A stretch of 64,000 bases of DNA, taken from Escherichia phage AV111. Below the pieces are notes generated by a model. That model searched no databases. It had not been told where the DNA came from and worked only from the letters and a program-made list of their open reading frames with translations. A program made the position numbers and the translations under genes. The DNA is taken from the sequence record OR352941.1; one strand, written 5' to 3'. Shown in pieces: positions 4,773 to 50,836 of the stretch. The number at the start of each line of letters is the position of its first letter. The first letter of the stretch is position 1.

Positions 4773-5048
4773 TTAAATTGCTTTGCATTCAATTTTTTGT
4801 GTACCGAAATTGATATCACATTGGATAACTAAATCGCCGTCAAGATCAAATACCACGATGGCGTGTGCAGACCCAGGGAGAAGAGTAATAGCAATAGAAT
4901 CTACTTGGTCTGGGAGCAAAGCATTGAGTACATGAGTTAGTTGAGCATGAACTCTGAGTTCGGCCGCATTATCAAGCACTTCAAACATATTATTAGCAAT
5001 AATCTGACTGAAGACTACCTTTACAATTTCAGAATAAGTTGGGAACAT
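4773..5048 (-). CDS. hypothetical protein, 91 aa
   Basis: ORF track. Confidence 0.5.
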   Translation of the reverse strand: MFPTYSEIVKVVFSQIIANNMFEVLDNAAELRVHAQLTHVLNALLPDQVDSIAITLLPGSAHAIVVFDLDGDLVIQCDINFGTQKIECKAI

Positions 5049-5055
5049 AATTACC

Positions 5056-5280
5056 TCAGTGCACAGTATTTACTTTAACTCGAACAACAAATCGCTCGGT
5101 TGGTTCACCTACAGGAACAAACTCTACATGATATTCACCTTTGTAACGAGTATTCAGATCATTACGAATTCCTGCGAGTTTGTTGATTAATGTAGGACTC
5201 ATATTAAGTCCCACTAGTTCACGAAGCATTTTGTATGCTTCATCTTCGATTTCATGATGTTTATCGTACATAGTTTTCAT
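5056..5280 (-). CDS. hypothetical protein, 74 aa
   Basis: ORF track. Confidence 0.5.
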   Translation of the reverse strand: MKTMYDKHHEIEDEAYKMLRELVGLNMSPTLINKLAGIRNDLNTRYKGEYHVEFVPVGEPTERFVVRVKVNTVH

Positions 5281-5451
5281 TTAACCATTCAATTGCCTGG
5301 TCGACGTTATCAAATATACCGCCGACCAAACGTTCTTCATGCTCATAGTCCAGCACATCAATACCGAACTGTCCATTTACTAAAGGCCAGGCTACAAACA
5401 AATATTCTTTATGCTGTTCGATGGCCTCAATCACTTCATATAATCGTTTCA

Positions 5452-5452
<1 letters not shown>
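5261..5452 (-). CDS. hypothetical protein, 63 aa
   Basis: ORF track; tight packing against pseT. Confidence 0.45.
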
Positions 5453-6538
<1,086 letters not shown>

Positions 6539-6539
<1 letters not shown>

Positions 6540-6838
6540 TATTTGATTCCTAAGAAAGCTTCAAGAATACGAATGTTGAGTTCGCGCCGGTCTTTATTAA
6601 TTTCAGCAACGTTTTTATTAATTGACGTACTTCTAACGTTTGAAGAAATAAATTTAATCATATGACTTTTGAGTTGTTGCAAATCCAACCCTTTTTCTTT
6701 AGCAGCTTTACGAAGAGCTTTACCTGCTTCATCTAGTGCCTTTGCTGCATCTTTGTCATAATTGCCAGGTGACATTCCACGACAGATATCAACATACTCA
6801 TCAGACCGTTTGATGTAATTCTCTAGTAATGTTTTCAT
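6539..6838 (-). CDS. hypothetical protein, 99 aa
   Basis: ORF track; GAGGAA SD; early promoter upstream. Confidence 0.5.
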
Positions 6839-6866
6839 TTAGATTTCCTCAATTATCCATAGGAGC

Positions 6867-6896
6867 ATTATACTCTGCTCCTGAGAGTTTGTAAAC
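6867..6896 (-). promoter_or_regulatory. T4-type early promoter, -10 TATAAT flanked by inverted repeat AGGAGCA / TGCTCCT
   Basis: plus-strand attata 6867-6872, gtaaac 6891-6896; inverted repeat arms 6861-6867 and 6876-6882. Confidence 0.5.
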
Positions 6897-7120
6897 TATT
6901 TTACTAAAGATTCAATATACTCGTGAAGAGTTTTAGTCGCTACTGCCCACTTATTCTGATATTCATTTTTCAGATTAGCACGAGACTGAACTAACAATCG
7001 GTCATTAGTCGGAGGCAAAGATTCTAATCGTTGAATCTGGCGCCCATAAATCATAGCCGCCATTTCAGATTCATAGATAAGCCCTTTAATGTATTCATGC
7101 TGTTCTTTAGTCATTGGCAT
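6896..7120 (-). CDS. hypothetical protein, 74 aa
   Basis: ORF track. Confidence 0.45.
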   Translation of the reverse strand: MPMTKEQHEYIKGLIYESEMAAMIYGRQIQRLESLPPTNDRLLVQSRANLKNEYQNKWAVATKTLHEYIESLVK

Positions 7121-7401
7121 TTTTCCTCTTTTAAACCACTACGATAATAACATAACATAGTCTTCTGGTCATGTATATATCTTTTTACGTCGTTTAACCA
7201 GATACGAAATTCTTGAGAGTCTTCAAATGGCATTCCAACCCACGGATTACCATCAATAACCTTTACTTGCCATTTCTGGTTATATTCGGAAATAGGCGTA
7301 GGCCATGAAGGATGTAAAGTTTCTTTAGGGCTTACTGGCACATCCTGAGTACATCCAACTAGGAGACCAATAGATAATACAGCCACAGTTAATTTAATCA
7401 T
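7111..7401 (-). CDS. putative lipoprotein, 96 aa
   Basis: N-terminal signal peptide with lipobox-like LLVGC. Confidence 0.5.
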   Translation of the reverse strand: MIKLTVAVLSIGLLVGCTQDVPVSPKETLHPSWPTPISEYNQKWQVKVIDGNPWVGMPFEDSQEFRIWLNDVKRYIHDQKTMLCYYRSGLKEEKCQ

Positions 7402-7754
7402 TCTGAGAGCTTCCTGAGGTCTTCTGCAAAGGAATCGAAGGACCTGTTGATTTGTTTTTCGACCAATCCTGGCTTACTTGCCACCACGTTCTTCTTCTTC
7501 GAATCCTTACGGAGCTTTTCATTTTCAGCCTTAAGTTGGTCAACTAAAACACGGTTCTTATAAGTCATTTCTTCGATTGACTGATATTGAATCTTGAAGT
7601 CGTCTAATACTTTAGCATTGTTTTTAGCAGTCTCTTTAACAGAAGCCAATTCAGTATTCAGCGAATCAACTTTGTTGTTTAAGACAACTATTGTTATAGT
7701 AGAAACTAGAGCAAAAGCTGTTACTATAGCATAAATCGGATTTACTTTAAGCAT
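7398..7754 (-). CDS. putative membrane-anchored coiled-coil protein, 118 aa
   Basis: Hydrophobic N-terminal segment AIVTAFALVSTITIVVL followed by a charged helical region. Confidence 0.5.
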   Translation of the reverse strand: MLKVNPIYAIVTAFALVSTITIVVLNNKVDSLNTELASVKETAKNNAKVLDDFKIQYQSIEEMTYKNRVLVDQLKAENEKLRKDSKKKNVVASKPGLVEKQINRSFDSFAEDLRKLSE

Positions 7755-8242
7755 GTTTTAATAATCTCAATGATTTCATCTCGGGATAATCCATTGATAA
7801 GAACGGTTTTCAAACCATCACACTGGATTTTGTATGATTCAAACAATACACACAACTCTTCTGCTGTATGATATGGACTTGAAATTCCGAGGCGGTTGAA
7901 TTTGTCGGTAAGAGGGTCGCAAATAATATAGAATTTGATACCTGCGATATGTACGTTTGGTTGACTAATATTAATGAACACATTAGCGTCATATTTAGTC
8001 AAATTGTTTTGAAGAAATTCTACCATAGCATTAACTGCTTCTGGCATCGCTTCGCGTTTCTCTTCAGCGTATCGGGTTGAATACTCTTTTTGTTTTACTT
8101 TCTTTTTAAGATTTTTGGCCAGTGTAACACGTAGGTCAGTAAGATAACCAACTGGACGTCCTTTCTTAAAGACCCGGATTCCGTCAGTTGTGTCTCCAAA
8201 AGCGTTTACGACCATATCGTTAGTAATCAATTGCATATTCAT
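7742..8242 (-). CDS. alc: probable Alc (host transcription unfolding/termination protein), about 166 aa
   Basis: Position between pseT cluster and rnlA; start moved to ATG 8240-8242 (MNMQLI...) which has GAGGAGA 6 nt upstream; the longer track ORF start lies inside the promoter. Confidence 0.5.
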   Translation of the reverse strand: MNMQLITNDMVVNAFGDTTDGIRVFKKGRPVGYLTDLRVTLAKNLKKKVKQKEYSTRYAEEKREAMPEAVNAMVEFLQNNLTKYDANVFINISQPNVHIAGIKFYIICDPLTDKFNRLGISSPYHTAEELCVLFESYKIQCDGLKTVLINGLSRDEIIEIIKTCLK

Positions 8243-8270
8243 AATTTTCTCCTCGTGTTGTTGATAAACC

Positions 8271-8301
8271 CATAGTATCACCATCCTTGGTGTTTGTAAA
8301 C
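8271..8301 (-). promoter_or_regulatory. T4-type early promoter with CCAAGGATGG spacer motif
   Basis: plus-strand gtaaac 8296-8301; catagtatca 8271-8280; spacer contains ccatccttgg. Confidence 0.45.
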
Positions 8302-8303
8302 CG

Positions 8304-9437
<1,134 letters not shown>

Positions 9438-9451
9438 TCAGTTAGTTTTTT

Positions 9452-9484
9452 TAAATTGTACCACAATCCTTGTGGTATGTAAAC
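9452..9484 (-). promoter_or_regulatory. T4-type early promoter
   Basis: plus-strand gtaaac 9479-9484; spacer inverted repeat taccacaa / ttgtggta. Confidence 0.4.
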
Positions 9485-9894
9485 TACTTTTTCTTATGTT
9501 GGATATTCCAAGGCGGGTTGAACTTTTTGATAAAAAGTGGTTCTTCAAGGTCCATTGTTGCGATGGTCATTGAACCAAGTTCGTTGGTGACTGAAAGGTC
9601 AAAACATTGGCGGGCCCAGAATTCAACCTTTTTGCCTTGCATTAAGGCATCCAAAATCATAAGTGATTTTCTTGAATCTGAAGTCTGGTCTTTTCGATTT
9701 ATGGCTGTTCGATAATAGTTAATGCGTTTCTTTAAATTCTTGGTTTTACCAATATACACGAGTTCGTCATCTATAGCAATAGCATATATGACATTTTTCT
9801 TATTAGGGACATCAACTGTTTTAATTGTTGCATCTTCTAATAGCTCCAATTCTGTATATTTAATAAAGGAATATTCGGCGGCGATATCTTTCAT
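9484..9894 (-). CDS. denA: endonuclease II (GIY-YIG family), 136 aa
   Basis: GIY-YIG-like VYIGKT ... RINYY; length matches T4 DenA; position between rnlA and nrdB. Confidence 0.8.
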   Translation of the reverse strand: MKDIAAEYSFIKYTELELLEDATIKTVDVPNKKNVIYAIAIDDELVYIGKTKNLKKRINYYRTAINRKDQTSDSRKSLMILDALMQGKKVEFWARQCFDLSVTNELGSMTIATMDLEEPLFIKKFNPPWNIQHKKK

Positions 9895-9898
9895 AATA

Positions 9899-9917
9899 AA
9901 GTGGGACCGAAGTCCCG
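9899..9917 (-). other. stem-loop GGGAC-UUCG-GUCCC between nrdB and denA
   Basis: gggaccgaagtccc at 9902-9915. Confidence 0.35.
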
Positions 9918-9920
9918 TCC

Positions 9921-10423
9921 TTAGAAATATTTTTTGTATGAATTGATTACATTTTGGTCTACATCATTATCAATTTGTGCGACAAGATAAGAACTGATTT
10001 CAACTTCTTGTGGGGCTGCTTGAACCAAATCAGAGTTCAAATACTCACGAATCCATGGAATAGGATGACGAGTTGATACGTCTTTAAGAGGACATGGCAG
10101 ACCACAACTACGCATACGAGACACGGTAAGATAATCCACAAATTCACTTAGGATTTTAACATTTAGACCTGGAAGAGCACCATCTTTAAACAAGTGTTCA
10201 GCCCATTCTTTTTCTTGAGCGTTAACTTCCATGAAAATATCAACTGCTTCTTGTTCACACTCTTGAGCAATTTTGACCCATTCATCACCGTCTTCGCCAT
10301 CTTGTAAAGCACGAATAATATATTGAGTGCCCTTGAGGTGAAGCTGTTCATCACGAGCAATGAACTTCATAATCTTGGCATTACCTTCCATGATTTCCAT
10401 GTTCTTATGGAAGTTAAAGGTAC
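9921..10423 (-). CDS. nrdB: ribonucleotide reductase small subunit NrdB, exon 2
   Basis: Frame continues CTFNFHKNMEIMEGNAKIMKFIARDEQLH... when joined to exon 1 at the GCG-T / GT-ACC junction; ends ...SYKKYF. Confidence 0.8.
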
Positions 10424-11514
10424 CGTTATGTTCGATTGAGCTCGCTAATTCTCAACCCGTTCTCTTATGAACTGCTACATATTACTATGCAGACCAGACT
10501 ATATCACAATCCCGGAGGGATTCTCCCCATTTCGAGTCGCTTGACCCTACGTCCGAAGACTAGTCGTTGAACCTTGCTTTGCAATTGTCGCCGTGCCATC
10601 GTTTATATGTTGATGGTGATAAATCTTTCTTATCACAATATGGACAATTCAATTGAATTCTATTTGGATTTAATTTACATCTGTCATTATGTTTTAGATA
10701 AAATCCAGGACCTTTACCAATGTGACCACAGAAATCACATGTGATTTCTTTTTGTGCAGGATGGGTCCCGTTCTTAACCATTTCTAATGTTTTTGCTGAT
10801 GTTCTTTTCTTATGGTCTTCTGATAAGAAATGATGTGAACCGTCATTTACCCGTTTTGATTGAGTTTCTGACTGCATTTTACCACCGCAAAATACATGAG
10901 TACCTTCTTTTATAGCTGCAATATTACGTTCTTTGACTTTTGCAACATGCTCAGCTTGTTGAAAATTATGTATACCTAATGCAACTCTATTTAAATTAGA
11001 TTTACGTTGTATTTCACCACCTAAAAGATGAAATGTACCATTTTCTATCTTAGATTTAATAGAGGCAATATTTTTAGCTCGTACTTCAGGGATATTAAAA
11101 ATCTGGATTTCTCTAGATTTTGCGGCTTTAGAAGCTAATTCAGAAATTTCTTCAGGAGAATATTTCATTCTAAGCTTTATAGCATGACAAGCCTGGTAAT
11201 CTTTTTGAGCTAAATGTATATCATAATGTTCCTGTATAGAAAGGCACATCAAATTATCTAAATCATTATTTTCACGGTTACCGTCTTTATGATGGATTTC
11301 GTATGTTCTTCCATCAGAATCTTTAGGTATAGGTCCGTTAGCATCTATCCAAATTTTTCTATAGTTCAATTGTGCATCCTCTTAAAAGTATAATCATATT
11401 TATATTATACTAATTAAAGGTGCAAGCAAAACCTTGGCTGCTAGTTTTCCTATAAAGGACTTTCCAGCAATTAAAGGAGTTTTCGATAAACGTTACCGTT
11501 TAAAGGCGCATTTT
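10424..11514 (-). mobile_element. group I intron in nrdB (about 1.09 kb) carrying an I-TevIII-like homing endonuclease ORF
   Basis: Exon 1 ends with U (…UUU GCG U), intron ends with G (…CAUAACG); splicing restores codon UGU and the NrdB reading frame. Confidence 0.7.
10560..11369 (-). CDS. intron-encoded HNH homing endonuclease, I-TevIII-like, 269 aa
   Basis: HNH motif region (YEIHHKDGNRENNDLDNLMCLSIQEHYDIH) plus C-terminal Cys-rich zinc finger (CDFCGH ... CPYCDKK); inside the nrdB intron. Confidence 0.8.
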   Translation of the reverse strand: MNYRKIWIDANGPIPKDSDGRTYEIHHKDGNRENNDLDNLMCLSIQEHYDIHLAQKDYQACHAIKLRMKYSPEEISELASKAAKSREIQIFNIPEVRAKNIASIKSKIENGTFHLLGGEIQRKSNLNRVALGIHNFQQAEHVAKVKERNIAAIKEGTHVFCGGKMQSETQSKRVNDGSHHFLSEDHKKRTSAKTLEMVKNGTHPAQKEITCDFCGHIGKGPGFYLKHNDRCKLNPNRIQLNCPYCDKKDLSPSTYKRWHGDNCKARFND

Positions 11515-45824: not shown

Positions 45825-46004
45825 TTAACCCTTCTTAAGTAAGTCGTAAAAACCACCGTTCACATGTTTAGGAGCAGAAACCCGACGAGTAGACAGACGA
45901 TGACATTCAGGGCAAACATCGTTTTCTCGTTCAGAAATCCTTTTAATTTTTTCATATTCATGTCCGCAATCTTCAGATTGGCATTTATAGTCGTATAACG
46001 GCAT
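45825..46004 (-). CDS. FmdB-like zinc-ribbon protein, 59 aa
   Basis: Hand-translated [37 protein letters not shown]...; CxxC...CPEC spacing typical of FmdB-family zinc ribbons; ATG overlaps upstream stop. Confidence 0.45.
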   Translation of the reverse strand: MPLYDYKCQSEDCGHEYEKIKRISERENDVCPECHRLSTRRVSAPKHVNGGFYDLLKKG

Positions 46005-46435
46005 TATTGTTCCTTAAAGTGAGCTTTCAACATTTGATACAAAGACCATGCCTGGTCGCTATTTTCGATAGTAATCGACATCACAGGAAATTCAGACAAT
46101 TCATCAAGTTCTCCAGAGTCTTGCTCTTCAGACGCTTGATATGGATTTCCTACTTCATCGAAGAACTCAGCTTCGCATGTAGAAAGCCAGATAAAGTTTT
46201 CATCAAGGATATCACCACCTGTAGCGTATCCGACCATGCCAGTAGATGTCACAATTTTAGTAGGACGTCCAAGATGGTCAACATCTAATACTTTAAACGG
46301 TTCCATGCCAAGACGTCGTGCATAAATCCCATTATCAGTGTGGTCTTTAATAAACTCTTCTTGGGCACGTTTATCTATAAATTGATACCATGAGTTAACG
46401 CGGAATTTATTAGCCATTAGTAAGTTTCCTTCCAA
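46004..46435 (-). CDS. hypothetical protein, 143 aa
   Basis: ORF track. Confidence 0.5.
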
Positions 46436-46644
46436 TAAGTTGTACCGTTTTCAGTGATTTCACGGAAGATACCATAGATAGGCATTTCATCGCCGAGTTT
46501 TTCGTAAACGTAAACCACTTCTGTGTAGCATAAAAATTCGGTCCAGTTTTTCTGTACAACAACTAAATCAGGATTAAACAGAACATCTTCAAACTCATCG
46601 ATGTTTGAATCAGTAGTTACGTTTTTAATGATTTGACGTTTCAT
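46417..46644 (-). CDS. hypothetical protein, about 75 aa
   Basis: Start moved to ATG 46642-46644 (MKRQII...) with GAGGAG SD; track start lies inside the promoter. Confidence 0.45.
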
Positions 46645-46666
46645 AATATTCTCCTCTTGTTTTGAT

Positions 46667-46700
46667 AGGTCTATAGTATCATAGACCATAGTTGTTGTAC
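46667..46700 (-). promoter_or_regulatory. T4-type early promoter (variant -35), -10 flanked by GGTCTAT / ATAGACC inverted repeat
   Basis: plus-strand ataggtctatagtatcat 46665-46682; tgtaca 46695-46700. Confidence 0.4.
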
Positions 46701-46701
46701 A

Positions 46702-47226
46702 TCATTTTAGCAAAATAAAATCAACTTGTTCTGCCAATGAACGTCTAAACATTAATTGACATCTTCCGAGGATGAAATCAGGTGCTTCATAGACCGCTAT
46801 GTAGTATCCTTTGGCTTTCAGGAGTTCAACATCCACCTGGTCATCAAACCATGCATAAACCGCGACAACACTTTCAAATCCAAAATAGAACTCTTGAGCC
46901 CAATCTTCGTTCAATTCAAATGTGTGCTCAACTCTATAGTATCTTAAGATATTTTGTTCAAGGAGTTTGTCTTCATTTACTGTAGGACGATTAGGGACAT
47001 TATAGTTGTCGCCGTGATGGTAGAAGTTACCTGAGAGTATTCCATGCTTATCAAGGAACTCCCATGTTTCTTCAGAGTTGTCGGTGCCTGACCAACCGTA
47101 CGGCGAGCGAGGTTCTTTATTCCAAGAGGTTTCCCAAATTCTGACGGCTTTACCATCTTCGATAGCAATTCCTGGTAATGATTCACGTTGAGTACAAAAA
47201 CTACGTTCTACGCGGTAAACTAACAT
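46702..47226 (-). CDS. hypothetical protein, 174 aa
   Basis: ORF track; ATG with GAGGAG SD. Confidence 0.5.
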   Translation of the reverse strand: MLVYRVERSFCTQRESLPGIAIEDGKAVRIWETSWNKEPRSPYGWSGTDNSEETWEFLDKHGILSGNFYHHGDNYNVPNRPTVNEDKLLEQNILRYYRVEHTFELNEDWAQEFYFGFESVVAVYAWFDDQVDVELLKAKGYYIAVYEAPDFILGRCQLMFRRSLAEQVDFILLK

Positions 47227-47232
47227 ATTATT

Positions 47233-47281
47233 CTCCTCTGGTTGATGTGGTTATAATATCAAAACCAGAGGAGAAGTAAAC
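47233..47281 (-). promoter_or_regulatory. T4-type early promoter with 11-bp perfect inverted repeat flanking the -10; downstream arm overlaps the SD of the 46702..47226 gene
   Basis: arms ctcctctggtt 47233-47243 and aaccagaggag 47263-47273; ggttataatatc 47249-47260; gtaaac 47276-47281. Confidence 0.5.
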
Positions 47282-47285
47282 AACT

Positions 47286-47705
47286 TTATGCAAAAGATGC
47301 TGGACAATATTTTTTGATTTGGAACTCAGGAACTACCATGAACTGTCCAGCGAAAACGATGTTATAAAGCTTAACACCATCTTCTACCCATTGGTCCGAA
47401 ATAAAACCAGCAACTTGATTCGTTGTCCACGGTGTTCCATCTGTTGCCGCAGCAATGGTGAACTCGTGGTCTTTTACAACTAAAACCGATCTGCACAGTT
47501 TCCATTTGAACGCGCGTTCTTCTGGCTCGATGAATTGGCTTTTAACGTAACCAATGTTACCATCAGCGTCACGAACTTTAACTTCGTTACGTCCAAAAAC
47601 CGGATCACTCACAGAAAGAACTTCGACCAACTTACCAGCAACTTTAGAGCGAGAAGCATCTGATACGTGTACATAATCACCAATAGAGAGATTTGCAATA
47701 TTCAT
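47286..47705 (-). CDS. hypothetical protein, 139 aa; member of a tandem paralogue triplet
   Basis: C-terminal motif GFISDQWVEDGVKLYNIVFAGQF shared with the next two ORFs. Confidence 0.55.
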   Translation of the reverse strand: MNIANLSIGDYVHVSDASRSKVAGKLVEVLSVSDPVFGRNEVKVRDADGNIGYVKSQFIEPEERAFKWKLCRSVLVVKDHEFTIAAATDGTPWTTNQVAGFISDQWVEDGVKLYNIVFAGQFMVVPEFQIKKYCPASFA

Positions 47706-47714
47706 AATAATTCC

Positions 47715-48210
47715 TTAAGCTTTACGAGGAGACACATAGCGAGTGATTTCAGATTCTTCAACAACTCGGAAGTCACCTAAGAATACAATATTGTATAACT
47801 TTTTACCATCTTCAACCCATTGGTCACTAATGAAGCCGCACATAGTATCAGTTTTGCTTGGATAACCGTATTCGTCGATGTAATCAAATTCTTTATCGGT
47901 TATAAATTCAACGCCTTTGCAAAGGGCCCATTTGAACTGTGTAGTAGGCTCAACGATATCGTTTGAAGCAAAGTGTGCAGGTGCAACTTCTTCGCTTGAA
48001 GCAAATTGGACTCGTATATGTTTTTCCAGGAATTTAGGACTTACGTAAGCATACTGGGCATCTTGTCCGCCAAAACTCGGGATGATTCGAACTTTAACTT
48101 CTTTAACACGTCCCATGCCATTAGTACGAAGCCCTGCTACTTCAACCAGACGACCTGCAGCTTTAGAACGAGAAGCAGGAGATACACGAAGGATTTCACC
48201 AATAGTAATC
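47715..48210 (-). CDS. hypothetical protein, about 165 aa; paralogue
   Basis: Start moved to ATG 48208-48210 (MITIGEI...); C-terminal GFISDQWVEDGKKLYNIVFLGDF. Confidence 0.5.
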
Positions 48211-48241
48211 ATAATTTCTCTCTCTTTGTTTAAATTGAATT

Positions 48242-48283
48242 CACTATACTCCATCCATCCTTGGATGTACAACATTAATTAAG
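48242..48283 (-). promoter_or_regulatory. T4-type early promoter (variant -35 GTTGTAC) with CCAAGGATGG spacer motif
   Basis: plus-strand cactatact 48242-48250; ccatccatccttggatg spacer; gtacaac 48277-48283. Confidence 0.4.
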
Positions 48284-48769
48284 GATATTAACCACAGCAC
48301 TACGTGGAACTACACTAAAATCACCTGCATGAACAACGTTCAGAAGTTCAACGCCGTCTTCAATCCATTGGTCAGTTACCCATCCACTCACTGGTCCTGC
48401 GAACGGACGTCGAATTGAAACAGCTTTACACAACAAATCAGTAGGCTCAATAGGCTTAATCAGAGTACCGTACATACAAGCGATATCCATATCAAAGTGG
48501 AGACCATCTTTAACAGGTGCTTCTTCAATCAACAGTTCAAAGTCTGTGCTTGGAAGGGCGGTAGTAGAAATTGTACCGTATGAATTTTTAATTTCTAAGA
48601 ATAACCAAGGGCCTTCCGTTTGTTTGATGAAGTTAACAATAGTGAAACTATTACCTTGAGTGGCACCTAAAATTTCACAAAACTTTTCATAAGCTCGCAC
48701 TGAAGCACCATACCAGTTAATTTGTTTTTCGTCTTTCAGGATGTAAGTAGCCGTAGTATTGATATTCAT
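48275..48769 (-). CDS. hypothetical protein, 164 aa; paralogue
   Basis: C-terminal GWVTDQWIEDGVELLNVVHAGDF. Confidence 0.55.
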   Translation of the reverse strand: MNINTTATYILKDEKQINWYGASVRAYEKFCEILGATQGNSFTIVNFIKQTEGPWLFLEIKNSYGTISTTALPSTDFELLIEEAPVKDGLHFDMDIACMYGTLIKPIEPTDLLCKAVSIRRPFAGPVSGWVTDQWIEDGVELLNVVHAGDFSVVPRSAVVNILN

Positions 48770-48800
48770 AATGTTTTTCCTGTTTAGTTAAGATAAAAAG

Positions 48801-48830
48801 ATTATACTACAACCAAGGATGGTTGTAAAC
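48801..48830 (-). promoter_or_regulatory. T4-type early promoter with CCATCCTTGG spacer motif (opposite orientation to the 8271 copy)
   Basis: plus-strand attatact 48801-48808; caaccaaggatggttg spacer; gtaaac 48825-48830. Confidence 0.45.
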
Positions 48831-48835
48831 TGGTT

Positions 48836-49513
48836 TTATCGCTGTTTTACACTTAACGGGTCAGGATTCTCAGGGACATCTTCAAGGCCAAGCGCATAAC
48901 GCTGAGCATATTTTAACATCAAAATATCTTTAGCACAATCATGAATACTATCATGGGCAACGAATCCTTTTAGCGTACCCATCGGTAATGGACACATACT
49001 TAATCCTCGTGTCAACGAGTAAGCTTCGATTGCCGTACGAATATCACGTTGAGCCCAGAATTTAACCGGTTCTAATTTATCAGTATCAATATCTGGTTCA
49101 AGAACACCTTCATCACGATAGAGGTCACGAATCAAATCGACCAAGATCGGGAAGTCAAAGCTCATACCACGGCACCACATCTGTGATTTCCATTGGTCAA
49201 CTTTATTAGCTCGACAATAATCTAAAAAGATTTTAATGCCTTCAAGCGTAGTGACATCGTCTTCAGACGGGGCCAAGTTTTTACGTGCTTCTGCTGATTG
49301 TTCTTTCCACCATTTCATAGTGGATTTAGCGAAAACTCGCTTCCCTTTCTGAGAAGCTAAATTAAATTTAATTCGCTTACCTCGTTGAACAAGTTCTTCA
49401 AATGATTCAACAACTTCAGGGTCGGAATTATATGCAATAACCGCAAGGTCAATAACAGCCGCTTTTGATGTATTGCCGAATGTTTCAAAATCTATAATAA
49501 CATCAGTGCTCAT
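48836..49513 (-). CDS. dexA: exonuclease A (DEDDh 3'-5' exonuclease), 225 aa
   Basis: DFETFG exo I motif at the N-terminus; HD motif near the C-terminus; position next to dda. Confidence 0.8.
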   Translation of the reverse strand: MSTDVIIDFETFGNTSKAAVIDLAVIAYNSDPEVVESFEELVQRGKRIKFNLASQKGKRVFAKSTMKWWKEQSAEARKNLAPSEDDVTTLEGIKIFLDYCRANKVDQWKSQMWCRGMSFDFPILVDLIRDLYRDEGVLEPDIDTDKLEPVKFWAQRDIRTAIEAYSLTRGLSMCPLPMGTLKGFVAHDSIHDCAKDILMLKYAQRYALGLEDVPENPDPLSVKQR

Positions 49514-49522
49514 AATTTTCTC

Positions 49523-50836
49523 TCAAATAAAATGGACGTCAAAACGACCACGAGTCGTGCCGACATATAGTAATTGTTTGGCTAATTCTGAATCGGCATA
49601 ATGGATACACGGTGTATAAACAAAGGCCGTGTCAACAGATATACCCTGGGCCTTATGGAAGGTTGATACAGGTAGTGCCTTCACCTTAGTGAACATGCGT
49701 TTAGCATCCCAGAATTCGCTCCATGGAGCTTTACCGCCTTTATTCCAGAATTTGTATGTTTCTGCGGTCTTAGCCAAAAACAAATTGAATTTATAAAGCT
49801 CTTCTTCAGAAGAAATAACCTTTATATCCTCTCGGACGTATTCCTCATCATCACCATATGTTTCTACTGTAAGATTCCAGTATCGTATCATATATTCGCC
49901 TGAAACACCACGTGCTTTAACGAATGTAGACGTTTCTACAGCATCTCGAATACGAACGAATTGCCCATTATTGAAAAGCATTTCGGTCATATTTTTACCG
50001 TCTAGCTTATATGTCTTAGTAAATGGCTCTTGTAGAACAATGACTTCGTCTTTAATAAATGGTTTTTCTGTTTCAAGAAGTTTTCGGCGAATAATTGAAT
50101 TTAACTTGTCCACCGACTTATTTGTGAATGCCATCATTCGATTTTCGAAAAGGTCTTCAGGAGTTTTAACGACGTTAAAATAGTTCATCATATACGATTT
50201 AAGGTCTGTATATCCATGAACGCCGTGCCCATCAACTACTTTATCGTAAATCCATTTGCCATTACGAATATCAGTCGCAACATCAATAATTGGTGCATTG
50301 CTACGTTTAACTTCTGTAAGGTTGCATTGCACGAAGTCTTTGTGAGTGAAGAAAGGACTTAGATACGCAGTTGATTCGCCTGGGTCTACCGGACGAATCT
50401 GGCATCGGTCGCCGATTCCAATTACTGTACACCATTTAGGGATACTAGCTAACATTATTTTAAACAGAGAACGGTCGCACATTGACGCTTCATCAAATAA
50501 CAGTACACGACACAAGGCTAAGTCGGGAACCTTTTTCTGTTCAAACAATACGTTTTCTTCGTATGTAGTTGGGTTGATTTTAAGAATGCTATGAATAGTC
50601 GATGCTTCTTGACCCGCAAGTTTGCTTAGAACCTTTTTAGCGGCATGTGTAGGGGCTGCTAAAATAATACCTGATTCTCCTGAAGAAATAAGAGCTTCAA
50701 CAATAAATCTAGTAAGGGTTGTTTTACCTGTACCAGCCGGTCCATTAATAGTTACATGATGTTTCTTTTCTTTAATAGCTTCCATAACAACGTTGAAGGC
50801 GTTTTTCTGGCCTTCAGTCAAATCATCAAATGTCAT
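49523..50836 (-). CDS. dda: Dda DNA helicase (SF1B), 437 aa
   Basis: MTFDDLTEGQKNAFN...INGPAGTGKTTLT... matches T4 Dda; Walker A present. Confidence 0.9.
   Translation of the reverse strand: MTFDDLTEGQKNAFNVVMEAIKEKKHHVTINGPAGTGKTTLTRFIVEALISSGESGIILAAPTHAAKKVLSKLAGQEASTIHSILKINPTTYEENVLFEQKKVPDLALCRVLLFDEASMCDRSLFKIMLASIPKWCTVIGIGDRCQIRPVDPGESTAYLSPFFTHKDFVQCNLTEVKRSNAPIIDVATDIRNGKWIYDKVVDGHGVHGYTDLKSYMMNYFNVVKTPEDLFENRMMAFTNKSVDKLNSIIRRKLLETEKPFIKDEVIVLQEPFTKTYKLDGKNMTEMLFNNGQFVRIRDAVETSTFVKARGVSGEYMIRYWNLTVETYGDDEEYVREDIKVISSEEELYKFNLFLAKTAETYKFWNKGGKAPWSEFWDAKRMFTKVKALPVSTFHKAQGISVDTAFVYTPCIHYADSELAKQLLYVGTTRGRFDVHFI

Follow-up and report, generated by a model that had tools for sequence, protein, structure and literature searches.

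What are the three short genes that lie in tandem between positions 47,286 and 48,769 of a 64,000-nucleotide stretch of Escherichia phage AV111 (sequence record OR352941.1; the whole stretch is called the window below), and what might be the role of the C-terminal block with which all of them end? Three consecutive open reading frames (ORFs) are present here on the minus strand, as an earlier sequence-only reading had described: ORF1 (47286-47705, 139 amino acids), ORF2 (47715-48212, 165 amino acids when counted from MITIGE; an alternative in-frame upstream ATG at 48275 would give 186) and ORF3 (48275-48769, 164 amino acids). The trio forms the motB/motB.1 cluster of a phage of the Mosigvirus group, RB69-like relatives of T4: ORF2 is the MotB orthologue, ORF1 a lineage-specific second MotB and ORF3 a full-length MotB.1. 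The gene family and the exact three-gene arrangement are already known from Patterson-West et al. 2021 (PMC7827196). Patterson-West and colleagues sorted 102 homologues into categories in which the C-terminal domain is common and the N-terminal domain differs, and stated that RB69 carries motB twice and motB.1 once.

The motB/motB.1 cluster of a Mosigvirus

The sequence-only reading held that no function could be read from these genes, but Pfam PF17613 and PHROG 1671 identify the family directly. All three proteins score above the 25-bit gathering threshold of PF17613 ("motB, modifier of transcription") and belong to the MotB family, at 86.4 bits for ORF1, 127.1 bits for ORF2 (covering profile positions 2-157 of 162) and 36.8 bits for ORF3. 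Among the PHROGs, ORF2 and ORF1 match the full profile of the "MotB-like transcriptional regulator" group phrog_1671 (E 9e-63 and 1e-52), and ORF3 belongs to phrog_2333 (E 1.7e-81). By BLASTP, T4 MotB aligns with ORF2 at 45% identity over 161 amino acids (E 4.5e-42) and with ORF1 at 40% identity over 161 amino acids (E 5e-30), while ORF3 aligns with T4 MotB.1 at 38% identity over 134 amino acids (residues 3-136, E 4.2e-28). These count as full-length alignments, of ORF1 and ORF2 to MotB and of ORF3 to MotB.1. When ORF3 is compared with MotB ("Category 1" in the published scheme), only the C-terminal domain aligns.

T4 MotB has in common with ORF2 and ORF1 a KOW-like N-terminal domain, a linker and a C-terminal barrel, the C-terminal motif TDQWVEDGVKLYN(V/I)VF, and its location in the early region from dexA to cef/goF. 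ORF3 has the N-terminal domain homologous to MotB.1 and the MotB.1-type C-terminal domain with the motif GWVTDQWIEDGVELLNVVHAG, which define "Category 2"; like T4 MotB.1, its gene lies directly upstream of motB. In a BLAST comparison of N-terminal domains ORF3 clusters with a class of 143-169 amino acids (27 members), and the RB69 gene at the same position is annotated motB.1.

The shared block G(F/W)(I/V)(S/T)DQW(I/V)EDG..L.N(I/V)V..G.F.VV is indeed found in all three ORFs, and 18 columns of their C-terminal alignment are invariant. A similarity limited to low-complexity residues had been named as grounds for doubt; the observed similarity is far above chance and not of that kind, with BLASTP E-values of 3.8e-32 for ORF1 against ORF2 (41% identity, residues 6-133 against 2-159), 1.3e-11 for ORF1 against ORF3 and 3.6e-10 for ORF2 against ORF3. 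In profile-profile comparison with hhalign, MotB-type and MotB.1-type C-terminal domains match at a probability of 99% (E 3e-18), whereas the corresponding N-terminal domains are unrelated (probability 0.2%). Paralogy is visible even at the DNA level, as a 21-nucleotide sequence family in all three genes and a 67-nucleotide repeat that links ORF1 and ORF2. The earlier description of diverging N-terminal halves applies to ORF3 relative to ORF1 and ORF2, but not to the latter two, which align over nearly their full length and have the KOW-like N-terminal domain in common. With that amendment, the proposed anatomy of a constant C-terminal module on differing N-terminal domains, duplicated in tandem within an early, dispensable region, is borne out.

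The position of the genes agrees with their sequence. The 3-kb region around the trio is 95-97% identical to many Mosigvirus genomes (e.g., NBG1, HX01, ST0), and the order dda-dexA-motB.1-motB-motB-motB.2-cef-goF is identical in the window and in the annotated RB69 locus. The window genes share one strand in the early interval from dexA to cef/goF, in agreement with the T4 and RB69 annotations. The RB69 motB locus (RB69p010, p011, p012, p013) has the same gene order and the same three family members, but its motB.1 is split and its MotB is annotated as 151 amino acids with a shorter linker; the window has an intact motB.1 of 164 amino acids and a MotB of 165.

Searched with a profile hidden Markov model (HMM) of the C-terminal domain, the 64-kb window has exactly three copies of it, as does each complete Mosigvirus locus; T4 and eight other T4-like loci have two apiece. 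MotB itself is present once in T4 and twice in Mosigviruses. A tblastn search with ORF1 matched 778 phage records, of which 207 have an orthologue of at least 80% identity, none falls between 60 and 80%, and the other 571 have only MotB matches below 60%; given this gap in identity, ORF1 is a duplicate of the Mosigvirus lineage. When 1.84 billion representative proteins were searched exhaustively with a profile of the C-terminal domain, 28 matched. Two, long proteins with Ig-like or MucBP-like repeats (P0238 and P0241), were rejected as spurious. The 26 real ones (about 26 clusters at 50% identity) are all small proteins of T4-like phages, from 43 to 251 amino acids, and the module is a narrow, phage-restricted family.

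One predicted barrel, three heads

The C-terminal module was delimited with the same HMM, all on the minus strand, at 47289-47510 in ORF1 (residues 66-139, E 1.4e-32), 47718-47951 in ORF2 (residues 88-165, E 1.6e-38) and 48278-48451 in ORF3 (residues ~107-164, E 4.9e-22). Structure prediction, one of the checks that the sequence-only reading had proposed, was carried out for two of the proteins. In AlphaFold2 (AF2) models of ORF2 and ORF3, a disordered linker connects two all-beta domains that are predicted with confidence; the predicted local distance difference test (pLDDT) scores are 80.9 and 81.3, respectively. The C-terminal domain forms, in either model, a meander of five strands, with strands 4 and 5 separated by a short 3-10 turn. 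The strands in ORF2 are at residues 100-112, 118-134, 137-144 and 147-152, followed by the turn and a last strand at 156-160; those in ORF3 are at 116-119, 127-137, 140-147 and 150-155, then the turn and 159-163, the first hairpin being shorter.

Structural neighbours of the C-terminal domain include the PHF19 Tudor domain, the MRG15 chromodomain, PWWP and BAH domains, and KOW domains of Spt5 and NusG. No oligonucleotide/oligosaccharide-binding fold (OB-fold) or eIF5A chain occurs in either list of the top 60 structural matches, and the marks of OB-fold class b.40.4.5, namely a Greek-key course, a helix between strands 3 and 4, and likeness to eIF5A or cold-shock proteins, are not seen. Because of this and of the 3-10 turn, which has the place that it has in SH3-like barrels, the module is predicted to be an SH3/Tudor-like small beta-barrel rather than an OB-fold, with the caveats that the models are predictions and that the aligned residues are not listed by the search tool. 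The resemblance is at the level of fold alone, as sequence identity between the module and the Tudor, chromo, PWWP and KOW barrels is only 6-19%. For an aromatic cage or methyl-lysine reading no evidence was obtained; the conserved D-Q-W-x-E-D-G hairpin is at most suggestive of such a cage for a methylated ligand. Sequence searches of the PDB found nothing with ORF2 and chance-level matches only with ORF3 (E 0.05 and E 1), and a Foldseek search of BFVD gave only family members at significant E-values and no new link. An internal duplication, by which one of the N-terminal domains would have given rise to the C-terminal domain as a diverged copy, was considered and is unsupported (hhalign probability at most 3%).

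The heads to which this barrel is joined differ in charge as well as in kind. ORF2 has a basic KOW-like N-terminal domain (residues 1-65, net charge +6, isoelectric point (pI) 10.4), a linker at residues 66-90 that is predicted to be disordered (pLDDT below 50 at 66-89), and a C-terminal barrel (residues 91-165) of net charge -4. T4 MotB is similar, with +5 in the N-terminal and +1 in the C-terminal domain; its pI is 9.2, whereas ORF2 as a whole is near-neutral (pI 6.2), owing to an acidic C-terminal domain and an acidic linker. With the shared module neutral to acidic and the KOW-like head basic in both ORF2 and T4 MotB, the DNA-binding activity of ORF2 would more likely reside in the N-terminal domain. 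In ORF1 a KOW-like domain (residues 1-63) is followed, with nearly no linker, by the full barrel. Its N-terminal domain is acidic (net -3, pI 5.0) and its C-terminal domain has no net charge. Compared with T4 MotB, ORF1 has thus lost the basic character of the head and nearly all of the linker. This reversal of charge relative to the basic heads of ORF2 and T4 MotB suggests that the DNA-binding function was lost or changed in ORF1 after duplication. ORF3 is acidic throughout (pI 4.65 for the whole protein), with net charges of -2 in the MotB.1-type N-terminal domain (residues 1-84) and -3 in the C-terminal domain. Its linker, between residues 84 and ~107, carries the motif FDMDIACMYGTLIKP and is disordered at 87-101 in the AF2 model.

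Orthologues are 92-95% identical to the window proteins in the C-terminal domains and 63-85% in the N-terminal domains; only the disordered linker of ORF2 is highly variable (31%). The proposal of a diversifying family is not supported by this comparison, which disfavors diversification of the arms-race type. The pattern is, on these alignments, that of ordinary purifying selection on modular paralogues and not of hypervariability. The ORF2 linker contains an imperfect tandem duplication (47946-48008, minus strand; 30 nucleotides at a spacing of 33) that spans residues ~69-91 and encodes the 11-residue units QFASSEEVAPA/HFASNDIVEPT. With ORF2 orthologues of 151, 154, 165, 172 and 175 amino acids and the low identity of the linker, its length seems free to drift by gain and loss of repeats.

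Combinations of heads and tails vary across the wider family. The MotB.1-type matches have N-terminal parts of at least three unrelated classes, the third of about 180 amino acids. Double-headed forms of about 250 amino acids (P0029, P0227) have a DxDxxxMYGTLIKP motif between two N-terminal modules, and in two others (P0060, P0229) a KOW head is joined to a MotB.1-type tail. In a 43-residue ORF (P0240), residues 1-17 of MotB.2 are joined to the final 26 residues of MotB.1, apparently through a natural deletion.

Reference records, neighbours and promoters

Comparison of ORF3 with its T4 counterpart drew attention to the T4 reference record. The T4 motB.1 gene in NC_000866.4 (7221-7650, minus strand) encodes a protein of 119 amino acids that ends in ...TDQWIGRWR, cut inside the DQW-EDG motif, whereas the 164 residues of ORF3 include a complete barrel and an additional linker segment with FDMDIACMYGTLIKP. 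The cut is due to an extra G in the reference, ATTGGAAGATGG as against ATTGAAGA(C/T)GG, that shifts the frame; the next frame continues with LEDGVELLNVVHAGEYSVVPRSAVVAILN, the missing half of the module. If motB.1 reads ATTGAAGATGG with one G, the true MotB.1 has 143 amino acids. This repaired protein is encoded in one piece, at 100% identity, in 13 other T4, T4T, RB55 and RB59 records, and only AF158101.6 and NC_000866.4 need two pieces. The 119-residue form is probably a one-base error in the reference record or a mutation of the stock; programmed frameshifting was rejected as the cause of the split because the 13 other T4-type records are in frame. The listed size of 13.8 kDa (UniProt P39415) corresponds to the 119-residue form; 16.2 kDa would be expected of the full form. 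The MotB.1 constructs in the literature are products of gene synthesis; the sole coordinates given for them are those of NC_000866.4, and the constructs were apparently designed from this reference record. Two papers checked for it make no mention of a frameshift. The RB69 gene is interrupted as well: in NC_004928 (3377-3873, minus strand, of the 5000-11000 piece) motB.1 is split into coding sequences of 132 and 29 amino acids by two bases that the window lacks. The 29-residue peptide that Patterson-West et al. 2021 listed as "Category 3" is, from its sequence, what remains of the MotB.1 C-terminus.

The genes around the trio are all on the minus strand and are transcribed in the order dda (helicase, 49523-50836), dexA (exonuclease, 48836-49513), ORF3, ORF2, ORF1 and an ORF of 174 amino acids (46702-47226), followed by ORFs of the sizes of cef and goF. 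The plus strand of the region has no ORF longer than 75 amino acids. The interval between dda and dexA is 9 nucleotides (49514-49522), with neither dexA.1 nor dexA.2. The 174-residue ORF is motB.2-like, with 33% identity to T4 MotB.2 (E 6e-16, BLASTP), and lies downstream of the motB pair, while T4 motB.2 lies between dexA and motB.1. Neither it nor T4 motB.2 was accepted as a family member, as neither matches the C-terminal-domain HMM or PF17613.

It had been claimed that each of the three genes has its own early promoter. This is borne out by sequence for ORF3, which is preceded by a strong early-promoter-like site (48801-48829, minus strand; GTTTACA...TATAAT, with TTTACA-17-TATAAT matching at 11/12), and is plausible for ORF2, where a weaker site (48243-48271, minus strand; TGTACA-17-TATAGT, 9/12) overlaps the final codons of ORF3. 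The claim fails for ORF1, since a scan for promoters gave no minus-strand candidate within the 3' part of ORF2. The spacer between ORF2 and ORF1 is just 9 nucleotides (47706-47714, minus strand; TAAGGAATTATTATG), includes the Shine-Dalgarno sequence AAGGA and is invariant in five loci. Since a promoter would not fit into it, ORF1 probably shares its transcript with ORF2.

The hexamers of the ORF3 promoter are conserved in four related Mosigvirus loci, with the spacer forming a 9-bp hairpin, and the ORF2 site is conserved in relatives as well, with TATAAT in three of them. In related Mosigviruses the ORF3 and ORF2 promoters have a common spacer, ...ACA(A/T)CCAAGGATGG(T/A)TGGAGTATA..., a match that suggests duplication of the promoter together with the gene. 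The ORF3 promoter hairpin of the window (48801-48830) has its 4-nucleotide loop inverted, CCATCCTTGG in place of CCAAGGATGG, which creates an 18-nucleotide inverted repeat with the ORF2 promoter. This hairpin and the T-run that follows it also score as terminator-like for dexA.

A conserved hairpin of about 16 bp lies upstream of the motB.2-like gene (47227-47285, minus strand; TTCTCCTCTGGTT...AACCAGAGGAGAA; -21.7 kcal/mol, z -4.1), pairing the Shine-Dalgarno sequence of this gene with sequence upstream. A promoter-like site there, TTTACT-16-TATTAT, has its -10 element inside the hairpin loop. Read-through transcripts would be translationally masked at the motB.2-like gene, and those from the proximal promoter would be open. 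A masked Shine-Dalgarno hairpin combined with a promoter in this layout occurs at other T4 genes. The only Rfam match within 46000-50000, to Y_RNA, stayed below threshold, at 24.8 bits against a gathering score of 38, and was taken as noise.

What the three proteins may do

What is known of MotB function comes from T4 (PMC6070864, PMC7827196). T4 MotB, made early and in abundance, binds DNA tightly regardless of sequence, whether the DNA is unmodified or contains glucosylated hydroxymethylcytosine. At proV it prevails over the footprint of H-NS, and it raises the expression of 75 host genes, about a third of which belong to the H-NS regulon. Its overexpression is toxic, and it increases burst size two-fold. 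With H-NS and StpA it co-purifies only when DNA is present (PMC7827196). Later summaries describe MotB as compacting or wrapping host and phage DNA (review PMC12449154). A test of toxicity on expression, as suggested from the sequence, thus already has an answer in print for T4 MotB (PMC6070864). The further suggestion of host-target binding or anti-defence is right in the broad sense that T4 MotB acts in host takeover and alters H-NS silencing (PMC6070864, PMC7827196); for a strict anti-defence activity no evidence was found. The early phage proteins T7 gp5.5, T4 Arn and LUZ24 gp4/Mip also relieve silencing by H-NS-family proteins, and MotB is like them in outcome. It is not related to them in sequence or fold, however, and while those proteins bind H-NS or MvaT directly, MotB joins H-NS only with DNA (PMC7827196).

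We regard the following as the probable account of this Mosigvirus motB/motB.1 cluster. ORF2 would work as T4 MotB does, with its strongly basic KOW/SH3-like N-terminal domain as the DNA-contacting head, and the C-terminal barrel would mediate a common protein contact rather than electrostatic DNA binding. Candidates for this contact are self-association along DNA, or a common host or phage partner. ORF1, with its acidic KOW-like head, and ORF3, with its putatively LSm-like MotB.1 head, may engage the same partner without the DNA-coating activity, as they carry the same barrel on heads that are not basic; they would then be sub-functionalised or modulating paralogues. The conservation of the C-terminal domain, the most conserved part among orthologues, was counted in favor. 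Several points weigh against this account. The biochemistry of MotB is that of the T4 protein only, and its N- and C-terminal domains were not assayed apart; net charge is a crude predictor; and the authors of PMC7827196 left open that either domain binds DNA, the C-terminal domain being an OB-fold by HHpred. Since MotB and H-NS do not interact when DNA is absent (PMC7827196), H-NS is not an obvious direct partner. Finally, a T4 delta-motB.1 phage has no laboratory phenotype (PMC12152347).

The HHpred result (b.40.4.5, with eIF5A matches to 1BKB and 2EIF; PMC7827196) leads to the alternative that the C-terminal module is itself the nucleic-acid binder, OB-fold or cold-shock-like as in Patterson-West et al. 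2021, and that all three proteins are DNA-coating nucleoid-associated proteins that differ in accessory N-terminal domains. The module's conservation can be counted on this side too, and several of its structural neighbours bind DNA or RNA (PWWP-ssDNA, MTF2-DNA, KOW). Set against the modelled fold and the charge of the module, we consider this unlikely. A speculative extension of the favored account, to be held slightly more tentatively still, takes the barrel as a Tudor/chromo-like docking domain whose invariant acidic-aromatic hairpin, D-Q-W-x-E-D-G, binds one ligand; the common ligand may be, e.g., the basic tail of a nucleoid protein or another barrel copy on DNA. One anchor with three heads would then form mixed coats on DNA, and the null results with MotB.1 would be in part an artefact of the 119-residue form.

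Two other explanations look further afield. Tandem copies produced in an arms race, with variable N-terminal domains that track host defense proteins, would make this a diversifying anti-defence or host-target-binding family. The dispensable early region, the lineage-specific duplication and the shuffling of N-terminal domains (KOW-type, MotB.1-type, the third class of ~180 residues and the double-headed form of ~250) would fit, and counter-silencing of H-NS can count as overcoming a host barrier. The idea is nonetheless improbable: orthologous N-terminal domains 63-85% identical are not hypervariable, a family of ~26 clusters among 1.84 billion representatives is small and conservative, and literature searches found no published anti-defence phenotype. 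Least probable of all is a role in which the proteins target RNA, or the machinery of transcription and translation, and not the nucleoid. A KOW domain is a typical feature of NusG/Spt5 and of ribosomal proteins, and the gene name itself means "modifier of transcription". In addition, Kim et al. 2025 (PMC12152347) placed the MotB.1 N-terminal domain in an LSm-like fold family with GoF and Frd.2, whose mark is a bent N-terminal sheet of five antiparallel strands. But MotB binds DNA tightly, and knock-down of T4 motB left early and middle transcripts unaffected and a few late ones mildly lower (PMC6070864, PMC7827196). MotB.1 also had little effect in an mRNA reporter assay, although the 119-residue form was used there.

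The trio in itself changes nothing in the published picture, as the family, its modular architecture and the RB69-type arrangement have all been described. What is added are modest refinements: a likely error in the T4 reference, an SH3/Tudor-like fold for the shared module, the asymmetry of charge, and an acidic second MotB. The 119-residue reference MotB.1 is without half of the barrel, which, were the docking idea true, would partly explain the published inactivity of MotB.1. The full 143-residue protein may behave differently from the synthesized form that was tested, and this could matter for work on T4 host takeover. Mosigviruses, for their part, allow a basic MotB to be compared with an acidic one that occurs naturally in the same genome.

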